Below are positions 33,225 through 36,826 of a stretch of DNA of 62,134 bases, piece by piece. Location of the stretch: positions 1-62,134 of the forward strand of contig CAYSUM010000003.1 in NCBI GenBank assembly GCA_964434225.1, read 5' to 3'. The first letter of the stretch is position 1, and each line of letters begins with the position of its first letter. The translations under genes and the position numbers were made by a program. This DNA is from an uncultured Rhizobium sp. GTDB taxonomy: Bacteria; Pseudomonadota; Alphaproteobacteria; Rickettsiales; UBA1997. The notes below the pieces were generated by a model, which was given only the letters and a program-made list of their open reading frames with translations, was not told the DNA's origin and made no database searches.

Positions 33225-35711
33225 ATGACTAAAAAATCACATTACCCAGAAGCAAATCAAAACCTTGATTTTGCTTTGATGGAAGAAGAAATTCTGCGCT
33301 TTTGGCAAGAAGAAAAAATTTTCGAAAAATCGATTGAGATCAGAAATTTTTCTGGCGAAATTGACGAAGATAATATCTCGCCAGTCGTTGAACCATGCGC
33401 TTTAAAGAGTCACGTCAATTGTCGTCACAAAAAAGAAGAAAGATCAGAATTCGTATTTTACGACGGCCCGCCTTTCGCTAACGGCCTGCCCCATTACGGC
33501 CACTTATTAACTGGCTTCATCAAAGATTTGGTAGCGCGTTATCAAACCATGAAAGGCAAAAAAGTTGAACGCCGTTTCGGCTGGGACACGCACGGATTGC
33601 CGGTTGAAATGGAAACTGAAAAAGAATTAACCGCTCGCGAAGGCCGCCAAATTTCTGGCCAAATTGCAATTCAAGAATATGGCATTGAAAAATTTAACAA
33701 CGCCTGCCGCGCTTCGGTAATGCGTTACGCCGATGATTGGGAAAATTATGTGACCCGCCAAGGCCGTTTTGTCGATTTCAAAAACAGCTACAAAACCATG
33801 GATTTGAATTACATGGAATCGGTGATTTGGGCTTTCAAACAGCTGCATGAGAAAGGTTTGCTTTACGAAGATTTTCGCGTGGTGCCTTATTCTTGGGCTT
33901 GCCAAACGCCACTTTCGAATTTTGAAACTAGGATGGATAACTCTTACAGGCAGAAGGCGAGCAAGGCGGTGACGGTTAAGTTTGAGTTGAAAAATTCTCC
34001 ATTCGGCGATCGCACTTCGATGGTTGCTTGGACGACAACTCCTTGGACCCTTCCTTCGAATTTGGGATTGGCGGTTGGTAAAGAAATTGATTATGCAGTT
34101 CTGAAAAAAGGTGAAGAGTTTTTGATTTTGGCTGACGGATTAGTTGAAAAATTCGCTAAAGATTTAGGCGAGTTTGAAAAAGTAAAAACCCTGAAAGGCG
34201 CTGAATTAGTGGGTTTAAAATACAAACCGCTATTCCCTTACTTGGTCGAGAAAACCAAAAACTCTTTTGTAATTCTCCACGGCGATTTCGTCACAACCGA
34301 AGAAGGAACTGGCATCGTCCACATGGCTCCTGGATTTGGTGAAGACGATCAACTTTTGTGTAAAGCTAATGGAATTCCAACACTTTGCCCAGTTGATGAA
34401 GGCGGCAAATTTACCTCGGAAATGTTTGACCTGCCTAATCTTTCAATCAAAGGCAAACAGGTTTTTGAAACCAATGACGACATCATTAAATATCTAAAAG
34501 AAAGCGGCGCTTGGCTTAAAACTGAACAATATCTTCACAATTACCCTCACTGCTGGCGCACCGACACGCCGTTGATTTATCGCGCGGTTTCGTCTTGGTA
34601 TGTAAAAGTGACCGACTTTAAAGATCGCATGGTTGAGCTCAACCAAGGCGTTAACTGGATTCCAAATCACATTAAAGATGGGCAATTTGGTAAATGGTTG
34701 GAAGGCGCCAGAGATTGGTCAATTACACGCAACCGCTTCTGGGGCTGTCCGGTGCCAGTTTGGAAAAGTGAATCGGGGAAGATAAAAGTTTTCGGATCGG
34801 TCGCGGAATTAGAAAAAATCTCGGGCCAAAAAGTTGAAAATCTGCATCGTCCTTTCATCGATAATATTACTTTTGAAGAAAATGGCGAAACCTTTAAACG
34901 CGTTTCCGACGTGCTTGATTGCTGGTTTGAATCGGGCTCGATGCCTTACGCGCAAGTGCATTATCCGTTTGAAAATAAAGAATGGTTTGAAGAAAACTTC
35001 CCTGCCGATTTTATCACCGAATATGTGGCGCAAACTCGCGGCTGGTTTTACACTTTGTTTGTTTTGTCGACCGCACTTTTCGATCGCGCGCCCTTTAAAA
35101 ACGTGATTTGTCACGGCACGATTTTGGATGAGAAGTCGCAAAAACTTTCCAAACGCTTAAGAAATTACGCCGATCCACTGGAAATTTTCGCTACTCAAGG
35201 CTCGGACGCCATGCGCTTTTACATGATTTCGCAACCCGTAATGCGCGGTCAAGAATTGCGTATCGACAAAGATGGAAAAGCGATTCGCGACACTTTGCGT
35301 TTGTCGATCAAACCTTTAATCAATGCCTTCAACTTTTTCTGTCTTTACGCCAATGCCGACGGCATCAAAGCTCATCGTATCGAATATAAAAAAGATCTGA
35401 GCAATATTTTGGATCGCTATATTTTAGCCAAGCTGAAAGCAACAGTTTCTAAGATTGACGCTGCAATGACTAATTACGACACAGTGATCGCCTGCGAAGA
35501 ATTCAATCAATTTTTTGAAGCCCTAAACAATTGGTATATTCGACGCAACCGCCAAAGATTTTGGAAAGGCGAAGTCGATCAAGACAAGCAAAATGCCTAT
35601 GACGTGCTTTATACAGTTTTAGTCACAATGTGCGAAACCGCAGCACCGCTGCTTCCGTTCACTAGTGAATTTGTTTGGAAAAGTTTGCAAACCGAAAAAA
35701 TTGCCAACTAA
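33225..35711 (+). CDS. ileS: Isoleucine--tRNA ligase, type 2 (eukaryote-like), C-terminally short
   Basis: HIGH is PHYGHLL, the CP1 editing motif is WTTTPWTLPSN and KMSKS is KLSKRL. The ORF stops 184 aa after KMSKS, right after the PLLPFTSEFVW helix. Confidence 0.9.
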   Translation: MTKKSHYPEANQNLDFALMEEEILRFWQEEKIFEKSIEIRNFSGEIDEDNISPVVEPCALKSHVNCRHKKEERSEFVFYDGPPFANGLPHYGHLLTGFIKDLVARYQTMKGKKVERRFGWDTHGLPVEMETEKELTAREGRQISGQIAIQEYGIEKFNNACRASVMRYADDWENYVTRQGRFVDFKNSYKTMDLNYMESVIWAFKQLHEKGLLYEDFRVVPYSWACQTPLSNFETRMDNSYRQKASKAVTVKFELKNSPFGDRTSMVAWTTTPWTLPSNLGLAVGKEIDYAVLKKGEEFLILADGLVEKFAKDLGEFEKVKTLKGAELVGLKYKPLFPYLVEKTKNSFVILHGDFVTTEEGTGIVHMAPGFGEDDQLLCKANGIPTLCPVDEGGKFTSEMFDLPNLSIKGKQVFETNDDIIKYLKESGAWLKTEQYLHNYPHCWRTDTPLIYRAVSSWYVKVTDFKDRMVELNQGVNWIPNHIKDGQFGKWLEGARDWSITRNRFWGCPVPVWKSESGKIKVFGSVAELEKISGQKVENLHRPFIDNITFEENGETFKRVSDVLDCWFESGSMPYAQVHYPFENKEWFEENFPADFITEYVAQTRGWFYTLFVLSTALFDRAPFKNVICHGTILDEKSQKLSKRLRNYADPLEIFATQGSDAMRFYMISQPVMRGQELRIDKDGKAIRDTLRLSIKPLINAFNFFCLYANADGIKAHRIEYKKDLSNILDRYILAKLKATVSKIDAAMTNYDTVIACEEFNQFFEALNNWYIRRNRQRFWKGEVDQDKQNAYDVLYTVLVTMCETAAPLLPFTSEFVWKSLQTEKIAN

Positions 35712-35722
35712 AATTGGCAATT
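35695..35722 (-). terminator. Candidate terminator of the minus-strand glycosyltransferase operon, overlapping the ileS stop
   Basis: A 9-bp stem (aattgccaa 35699-35707 pairing with ttggcaatt 35714-35722) is followed by a T-run on the minus strand. The stem is AT-rich, so confidence is modest. Confidence 0.4.
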
Positions 35723-35740
35723 AAGGCATAAGAAAAAGGA

Positions 35741-36826
35741 TTATCTGGATTTTTTTACGATCATCTCAACAATGTCATGCAGCTTCTTTCCCACTTTTTC
35801 ACAGGTATAATTCGCAAAGAATTTTTCGCTGGCTTTTGCAGCTAATCTTCTGGCGAAATCTTCATCTTTTGCCAAACGCTCAACCGCATCGGCGATCAAT
35901 TTTGGCATTGCTTGTGCGTCTTCTCTTGGAACTTTTAAACCATCAACTCCGTCTTCAATAATCTCGTCTGGACCCCAGCTGTTACTGGTAATAATCGGCG
36001 TATTATAAAGCATAGCTTCAAGCAAAACGATGCCGAAAGTTTCGCCAAAAGATGGCAGAATAAAAATATCAATTGAGTCAAAAAATGCTTTTTTGTCAGA
36101 AGTCCAGCCCAGAATTTTAAAACTATTTTCAACGCCCAATTCTTTGGCCATGGAATTAAGTAATTCTTCCTGATGCCCCACCCCGCCAATCACATATTCG
36201 CATTCAATTCCGCGATCGCGTAAAATTGGAAGCGCTTGCACCATTTTATCAAAATATTTTTCTGGATAAAGTCGACCCAAAGATCCAATGCGCAAAGGCT
36301 TATGAAATGCTGGTTTGACGGGCGCGACAAAATCTGCCGGAACTTCTATCATATTTGGAATTACGAAAGCCGTTCCCGGAGCTTTTCCAGCTTTGATCAA
36401 TTCTTTACTAAAATAAGAATTCACCGTCAAAACGTAATCGGCTTTTAAAAATTTACGCGGATTAATGCCGTGATCGATGGCGATGATGGGAAATTTTTTA
36501 GGACAAAAAAGACGTGCCGCACGAGTGAAAAACATCGCTCTGCCCGAATGACAAATTGCGGCGTCGGGCGCAAATTTAAAAAGAGAAAAAGCAATTCGCA
36601 AAATTGAGAAAATATCAATTTGACTGAAAGCTGGAACTTCAAGAAATTTCGATCCAGTTTCCTGAACATCTTTTTTAAAAACCATGCCGGTTTTTGTGAT
36701 CGAAATAACTTCGCAACCGTTGAAAATTAAGTATTGAGCGTAATCAATAAAACATCTTTCAACGCCCAAAATTTGATTATCGTTTTTGGATTTTTTATGG
36801 TTAAACAGAATATTCGCGACCTTCAT
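35741..36826 (-). CDS. GT4-family (GT-B fold) glycosyltransferase
   Basis: The C-terminal half carries the GT4 pattern LPSFGETFGIVLLEAM...GVDG (E-x7-E). Confidence 0.8.
   Translation of the reverse strand: MKVANILFNHKKSKNDNQILGVERCFIDYAQYLIFNGCEVISITKTGMVFKKDVQETGSKFLEVPAFSQIDIFSILRIAFSLFKFAPDAAICHSGRAMFFTRAARLFCPKKFPIIAIDHGINPRKFLKADYVLTVNSYFSKELIKAGKAPGTAFVIPNMIEVPADFVAPVKPAFHKPLRIGSLGRLYPEKYFDKMVQALPILRDRGIECEYVIGGVGHQEELLNSMAKELGVENSFKILGWTSDKKAFFDSIDIFILPSFGETFGIVLLEAMLYNTPIITSNSWGPDEIIEDGVDGLKVPREDAQAMPKLIADAVERLAKDEDFARRLAAKASEKFFANYTCEKVGKKLHDIVEMIVKKSR

Follow-up and report, generated by a model that had tools for sequence, protein, structure and literature searches.

A type-2 isoleucyl-tRNA synthetase divided between two separate genes in a family of Rickettsiales

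The isoleucyl-tRNA synthetase (IleRS) of an uncultured Rickettsiales bacterium is encoded in two pieces by two separate genes, and the same division is found throughout its family. One gene, here called ileS-N, lies in the window, the whole stretch of DNA analysed (62,134 nucleotides (nt); positions 1 to 62,134 of contig CAYSUM010000003.1, GenBank assembly GCA_964434225.1). It codes for 828 amino acids (aa) that include a complete catalytic core. The other gene, P0002, is found on a different contig of the same genome and codes for the C-terminal region, or tail, that ileS-N lacks. The gene-level facts of this split IleRS are secure, and the distribution of anticodon-reading residues between the two products suggests that they work together as a heterodimer. 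IleRS is known from textbooks as a single long monomer. We found no description of a natural split IleRS in the literature searched, which covered split or heterodimeric IleRS, ileS gene fission and DUF5915.

The catalytic piece and its early end

The ileS-N gene and its surroundings include the following features.

33225..35711, plus strand: ileS-N, 828 aa, putative catalytic subunit of the split type-2 enzyme; an open reading frame (ORF) that runs uninterrupted from its ATG start codon to a TAA stop codon.
33492..33503, plus strand: HIGH signature HYGH (within PHYGHLL), residues 90-93; ORF translation and structure alignments.
34029..34061, plus strand: editing-domain motif WTTTPWTLPSN, residues 269-279; ORF translation and structure alignments.
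35142..35156, plus strand: KMSKS signature KLSKR (within KLSKRL 640-645), residues 640-644; ORF translation and alignment.
35412..35693, plus strand: helical domain ARD1, incomplete in the ORF (Pfam Anticodon_1 positions 1-95 of 148); Pfam and alignment; carries N700, F704, N768 and R776.
35694..35711, plus strand: fission point, comprising the final five residues, EKIAN (824-828), with the TAA stop codon; junction alignment and N-piece ends in relatives.
35712..35740, no strand: 29-nt spacer to a convergent GT4 glycosyltransferase gene; ORF list and junction sequence.
35741-36826, minus strand: GT4 glycosyltransferase, a 361-aa ORF convergent with ileS-N (Glycos_transf_1, E 1.4e-33).

In its domain content, ileS-N has the Rossmann/HUP fold, CP1 including the editing domain, CP2 and the KMSKS region, together with the greater part of ARD1, the helical domain for anticodon recognition. 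Both class I signatures, HIGH and KMSKS, are present, and CP1 contains the editing domain and the threonine-rich motif that belongs to it. The initial annotation of this DNA had described a complete catalytic core by the motifs PHYGHLL, WTTTPWTLPSN and KLSKRL, and all of these are found in the ORF. The protein matches Pfam tRNA-synt_1 (E 2.9e-131) and scores 874 bits against the ileS model TIGR00392, above the curated cut-off of 621.4 for an equivalog. Its best solved relatives are the human, yeast, Thermus and Priestia IleRS2 enzymes (E 1e-214 to 1e-187). Because these are all of the eukaryote-like kind, we assign ileS-N to the type-2 IleRS proteins.

The gene had also been thought to lack 200 or more C-terminal residues, and we find that about 250-270 residues are truly absent from the ORF, since its MupA, Anticodon_1 and structure alignments all end early. 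The match to the MupA model covers positions 29-765 of 1024, and the structure alignments stop at residue ~767-786 of type-2 IleRS chains that are 990-1263 aa long. Neither Pfam nor profile matches revealed the type-2 C-terminal organisation (ARD2 with the INS subdomain, then ARD3) on the ileS-N polypeptide. The ORF ends in ...FVWKSLQTEKIAN, 184 residues past the KLSKR core and 10 residues beyond the W of the FVWKSL helix, just as first described. The short distance to the neighbouring gene likewise stands, with the ileS-N stop ending at 35711 and the convergent ORF, GT4 by Pfam, ending at 35741. No ORF continues on the plus strand beyond the stop, in agreement with the initial annotation, and the spacer holds no remnant of a C-terminal domain. 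The 3' junction of the gene is free of N runs and repeats. No tRNA genes were found within the window.

The tail gene

The missing region was sought with the full-length MupA model in the window's own genome (G000; 1.6 Mb in 57 contigs, 98.7% complete). Model positions 763-1012 are matched by a 270-aa open frame at G000:C5:21671-22420 on the minus strand (E 1.9e-20), which corresponds to the following gene.

G000:C5:21623-22429, minus strand: tail gene P0002, a 269-aa ORF with MupA, DUF5915 and Anticodon_1 matches.

The early end of ileS-N had originally been left with four unranked explanations: a split gene, a naturally minimised enzyme, a recent truncation or a misassembly. A separate ORF with the missing domain was to reclassify the gene as split, and P0002 is such an ORF. 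The split gene is thus the explanation that stands; as set out below, a minimised IleRS is unlikely, and the other two are ruled out.

The P0002 protein begins MIDRKISVHL..., and its start codon lies 3 nt past the stop codon of purM. It matches Pfam DUF5915 (E 3.9e-28) and positions 93-146 of Anticodon_1. In alignment with Priestia megaterium IleRS2 (8c8v), P0002 covers residues 770-1013 (E 1.8e-21), and ileS-N ends at residue 767. The two separate ORFs therefore jointly span the full-length enzyme without overlap or loss, as seen both from their MupA matches (29-765 and 763-1012) and from the junction alignment. When compared with the fused orthologues of the order, both ends fall in a linker of 2-6 residues that precedes an invariant SVHL motif, and no residues are lost or duplicated between the two proteins.

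The predicted structure of P0002 (predicted local distance difference test score, pLDDT, 89.8) has a less confident N-terminal stretch of 20 residues, a long helix at residues 23-45 and then an ARD2-INS-ARD3 body. The solved structures that it matches best are 8c9d, 8c8v and 8wnd, in their C-terminal regions. No second locus in the genome passes the TIGR00392 cut-off; other matches score far lower, as expected for class I synthetases including valS.

Stand-alone tails of about 260 aa have many representatives in a library of 1.84 billion proteins. Databases annotate the tails as 'hypothetical' or 'DUF5915 domain-containing protein'. An ORF convergent with P0002 (L003:96-1340, plus strand, on G000:C5) codes for a 414-aa multi-pass membrane protein, whose weak Pfam match to Tad5 (E 6e-4) is below the cut-off.

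Conservation and selection within the family

The window's family is probably GTDB UBA1997 and includes the freshwater 'Rickettsiales bacterium' metagenome-assembled genomes (MAGs) UBA2645, UBA1997 and RIFCSPLOWO2_01_FULL_40_26. A study that does not mention IleRS describes bacteria of UBA1997 as epibionts living on cryptophyte algae in fresh water (10.1101/2023.01.31.526412).

Of 120 further family genomes, 113 have a stand-alone tail frame; they represent 15 of the 17 genera, and identities to P0002 go down to 34%. Complete frames measure 263-356 aa, and three shorter ones (104-201 aa) are apparently cut by contig ends. In the family genomes examined, no tail match lies inside a long frame, the longest being 356 aa. 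The truncation of the catalytic piece is equally widespread, as the N pieces end alike, at query residues 821-826, in 50/50 family genomes. This end point is shared across N-piece identities from 89% to 59%. Catalytic pieces stop 2-10 residues past the last shared helix, and tails begin 2-6 residues ahead of SVHL.

Among genomes of the genus in which both pieces could be located, the pieces are on different contigs. A long-read relative with a 1.2-Mb contig carries them 40 kb apart on opposite strands, and another relative carries them 1.3 Mb apart on a single contig. At nearly every family locus examined, purM immediately precedes the tail, and the gap between them is usually in the range of -4 to ~240 nt. 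Because only 3 nt separate the two genes in the window's genome, their arrangement suggests translational coupling of the tail to purM.

Nei-Gojobori estimates from 36 pairs of nine genus genomes put the median ratio of nonsynonymous to synonymous substitution (dN/dS) at 0.086 in the N piece and at 0.093 in the tail, values that are rough since dS is saturated in most pairs. The least saturated pairs give 0.04-0.12. By this measure, both pieces are under strong purifying selection, with dN/dS of ~0.09.

Divided reading of the anticodon

The anticodon contacts of the single-chain P. megaterium enzyme (PmIleRS2) have been defined by kinetics and structure: A35 and U36 are read by N647, F651, S713 and R721 of ARD1 (PMC13752280). 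G34 is read by an ARD3 pocket of Q961, R964, K965 and L969, and the D-loop is bound by the INS subdomain (PMC13752280). The R721A and R964A variants aminoacylate below detection, transfer isoleucine at a ~1000-fold lower rate and fail to complement, with isoleucine activation unaffected (PMC13752280).

The equivalents of N647, F651, S713 and R721 in ileS-N are N700, F704, N768 and R776, such that only S713 is replaced (by N). Those of Q961, R964, K965 and L969 are found in P0002 as Q194, R197, K198 and L202. The first three of these are invariant in 38 sequences, and L202 is kept in 35/38. Because the residues for A35 and U36 map to ileS-N and the G34 pocket with its essential arginine maps to the tail, the reading of one anticodon appears to be divided between two polypeptides, with A35/U36 read by ileS-N and G34 by the tail.

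A division of this kind makes it most likely, with a probability of roughly 85% in our estimation, that ileS-N and the tail constitute a two-gene IleRS that works as a non-covalent heterodimer. In the proposed mechanism, ileS-N would activate isoleucine, carry out editing and use ARD1 to read bases 35 and 36 of the anticodon. The tail would supply the last helix of the helical anticodon domain together with ARD2, the INS subdomain and ARD3, and hence the G34 pocket. The break lies inside the helical domain as modelled by Pfam, leaving ileS-N one helix short of a complete domain. The simplest route of assembly would be for the SVHL segment of the tail and its long helix (residues 23-45) to complete the ARD1 helix bundle in trans, which would rebuild the anticodon cleft of the fused enzyme.

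Several points weigh against this proposal. The association of the subunits and the need of both for charging are argued only from the R964A and R721A data on a fused enzyme. No clear Shine-Dalgarno sequence at normal spacing was found ahead of the tail gene, and the two genes are on different contigs of the genome. The saturation of dS noted above also loosens the estimates of selection. Overall, we regard the heterodimer mechanism as well supported by inference, and the catalytic piece by itself should be nearly inactive in tRNA charging.

Alternative explanations

The strongest competing possibility is that ileS-N is a self-sufficient, minimised IleRS and that the tail is dispensable or has another tRNA-related role. 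Precedents exist for function of parts of the enzyme, because anticodon-blind mutants of PmIleRS2 still activate isoleucine normally (PMC13752280) and Thermus thermophilus IleRS cut at residue 821 (1ile) still folds and binds its substrates. This Thermus construct (1-821) reaches beyond residue 769, the last one aligned with ileS-N, and the N piece stops one helix before its helical domain is complete. Moreover, the essential G34-reading arginine and its neighbours are invariant in the tail, and loss of this arginine in PmIleRS2 lowers isoleucyl transfer ~1000-fold and abolishes complementation (PMC13752280). Relative to dS, the tail and the catalytic piece also evolve at equally slow rates, and the tail is kept in 113/120 genomes of a family whose genomes are reduced. 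Self-sufficiency of ileS-N is therefore unlikely, given that the tail is conserved and carries the residues that read G34.

A much less probable alternative is that ileS-N is a recent truncation or a decaying pseudogene left by a rearrangement. Split genes in classical Rickettsia genomes are often products of decay, and the 29-nt spacer to a convergent gene resembles a rearrangement scar. However, the end point is identical in every family genome examined, over N-piece identities from 89% to 59%, dN/dS is ~0.09, and ileS-N is the sole IleRS of its genome. Neither relaxed selection, nor sporadic occurrence, nor an intact copy elsewhere was found for ileS-N. Recent truncation is ruled out because the split state is family-wide and under purifying selection.

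Misassembly or a chimeric contig at ~35.7 kb could be suspected in a metagenome assembly of 57 contigs whose valS is interrupted by a scaffolding gap, but the ileS junction shows no N run or repeat. It is ruled out because the same ends of the N and C pieces recur in >100 independently assembled genomes, including the long-read genome with the 1.2-Mb contig. Some split genes are known to rely on a split intein or on trans-splicing to join their products post-translationally or at the RNA level. Nothing specific speaks for such joining here, and it is excluded because no intein-sized extra sequence flanks the junction: only 29 nt follow the N-piece stop before the next gene, only 3 nt separate purM from the tail start, and Pfam matches of both pieces are to synthetase domains, with no intein halves flanking the break.

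The valS gene was itself considered as a second split synthetase, as it appears in frames of 257 aa and 689 aa (G000:C12 ~33860-33955; L002 3346-3445). This candidate was rejected as a scaffolding artefact. The break consists of a run of ~100 N flanked by a duplicated stretch of ~50 nt, and most of the relatives searched have valS in one undivided frame.

Recurrence of the split across Rickettsiales

A sample of 141 genomes was used to follow ileS across the order. Most families carry a fused gene, with the tail match falling within a frame of 898-1786 aa in one genome from each of 16 other families. Beyond the window's family, stand-alone tails occur in family f23 (six genomes), in 2/6 sampled genomes of f17, in f37, and in one of the two informative genomes of genus g49 (family f33). 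The split outside the window's family was confirmed by locating both pieces. The tails of f23, f17, f33 and f37 again start 2-6 residues ahead of S[VI]H[LI].

A maximum-likelihood tree of the N part (44 sequences) calls for at least five changes between split and fused forms even on well-supported branches. A single origin of all split forms was rejected by this tree and by an approximately unbiased (AU) test (delta lnL 764, p 1.2e-9). By these analyses, the order has seen five or more independent breaks at the same junction. The window's family and f23 form one split clade (Shimodaira-Hasegawa-like approximate likelihood ratio test, SH-aLRT, 84), and so the fission may predate both.

Linkage to purM was rejected as a universal feature, since it holds in the window's family and not in f23 or other split lineages. 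Tails of f23 instead follow an ORF of ~150-160 aa with an overlapping stop and start (L129:1559-2041 and L134:1619-2068, both plus strand), which is presumably Rrf2-like by the look of its N-terminal residues. In a third f23 genome (G241, L133), the gene upstream of the tail is a different ORF of 467 aa. Because these f23 upstream ORFs differ from purM, the neighbour of the tail varies between split lineages.

One genome of f33 (G158) carries the pieces side by side. At L085:256-3949 on the plus strand, an N piece of 828 aa, an ORF of 141 aa and a tail of 260 aa stand in a row and are joined by overlapping TAATG stop-start junctions. The 141-aa ORF is predicted to encode a multi-pass membrane protein and has no Pfam match. 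Another species of the same genus carries a fused ileS. The G158 locus looks like a fission in situ, in which a small gene inserted itself precisely between the two parts of ileS.

A three-piece synthetase and lineage-specific insertions

Genus g30 of the window's family goes further, as its IleRS is encoded by three ORFs of 449 + 655 + 277 aa. This arrangement is present in two genomes, G056 and the long-read MAG 'Rickettsiales bacterium UBA1997' (G041 = G069), which carries the pieces as follows.

L078:1273-2622, plus strand: first piece, 449 aa.
L076:1504-3471, minus strand: middle piece P0123, 655 aa.
L072:6001-6834, plus strand: tail, 277 aa.

The additional break falls within the editing domain, at the position that corresponds to residue ~404 of ileS-N, and its two ends match up exactly (...FDIEY stop / MAIISLNNRQVFETNDD...). 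A separate contig carries the first piece, and a distance of 40 kb lies between the middle piece and the tail, which occupy opposite strands of a 1.2-Mb contig. P0123 also contains a GNAT domain (Acetyltransf_3, E 5.4e-26) at residues 101-248, between MVELNNG and INWIPNH. An NCBIfam model exists for IleRS proteins with such a domain (NF040702, ileS_w_GNAT).

Other members of the family carry additional sequence as well. Frame length and alignment gaps indicate an insertion at the GNAT site in members of genera g24 and g20, and the long N pieces of g28 and g1 (1057-1112 aa) have extra sequence further upstream (query ~260-440). Overall, N pieces range from 802 to 1112 aa, with insertion hot spots at query ~257-297, ~404-440 and ~476 (genomes G009, G011, G012, G001 and G067). 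The hot spot at ~404 coincides with the extra break of the three-piece IleRS.

Comparison of family genera also reveals a short insert in ileS-N itself.

33345..33434, plus strand: lineage-specific insert of ~30 aa (residues ~41-70), ahead of the Rossmann fold, with a conserved C-x4-H-x2-C-x-H motif.

The insert is present in g1, g28 and g24, has diverged variants in g20 and g31, and a similar insert is visible in the N-terminal piece of g30. It was not found in the other sampled genera of the family, nor in sampled genomes of other families, whether fused or split. Its cysteine and histidine pattern makes a small metal-binding knuckle possible.

Comparison with known synthetases

The closest precedent is the alpha-beta leucyl-tRNA synthetase (LeuRS) of Aquifex aeolicus, which is called unique for having its active site and tRNA-binding function on separate subunits (Xu et al. 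2002, as described in PMC2377443). It resembles the IleRS pair in being a natural two-gene class Ia synthetase, with the active site on the large subunit and a contribution to tRNA binding from the small one. The Aquifex protein is another enzyme, comes from a hyperthermophile of a different lineage, and reportedly has its break at another position along the chain. In contrast to the Aquifex enzyme, the IleRS break cuts off the final helix of the helical anticodon domain, would leave a single anticodon shared by two polypeptides, and recurs in several lineages. Of the features of a two-gene synthetase of the Aquifex type, the IleRS pair shows full joint coverage of the enzyme and selection on both ORFs across species. 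The split IleRS, recurrent and family-wide, is a new case within the known two-subunit class Ia synthetases.

Shiba and Schimmel reportedly found in 1992 that fragments of Escherichia coli IleRS reassemble non-covalently into an active enzyme in vivo. The cuts in that work are said to have been artificial, made in a type-1 enzyme, with both parts co-expressed. Unlike these laboratory fragments, the split described here is natural, fixed and family-wide, and it affects a type-2 enzyme.

PmIleRS2 (8c8u/8c8v) shares with the split enzyme the same domain order (HUP, CP1/editing, CP2, ARD1, ARD2 with INS, ARD3) and the conserved anticodon-reading residues of ARD1 and ARD3. It differs in being a single polypeptide of 1032 aa, whereas the enzyme described here is cut between the equivalents of residues 767 and 770 and encoded at unlinked loci. 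A 2026 survey of ~98,000 IleRS sequences demanded the type-specific C-terminal domain on the same protein (PMC13752280), and the N pieces would have been dropped from it for that reason.

Implications

The split bears on annotation, as tails are labelled hypothetical or DUF5915 and N pieces resemble truncated genes. A natural division between bases 35/36 and base 34 also provides a ready system for asking how anticodon recognition reaches a distant active site. The same system could probe the strength of the ARD1/ARD2 interface and the action of the C-terminal module in trans.

We also consider, as a rather improbable idea, that fission is a favoured state in which a titratable tail subunit, co-translated with purM in the window's family, sets the capacity for tRNA-Ile charging. 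If true, the supply of the small subunit would link purine synthesis or growth state to translation. Such an advantage would explain why the same junction has been broken at least five times in Rickettsiales and why one genus has three subunits. Taken together, the recurrent break at one junction, the in-situ intermediate with its inserted gene and the three-piece form make this order a case study of how the gene for an essential enzyme undergoes fission.

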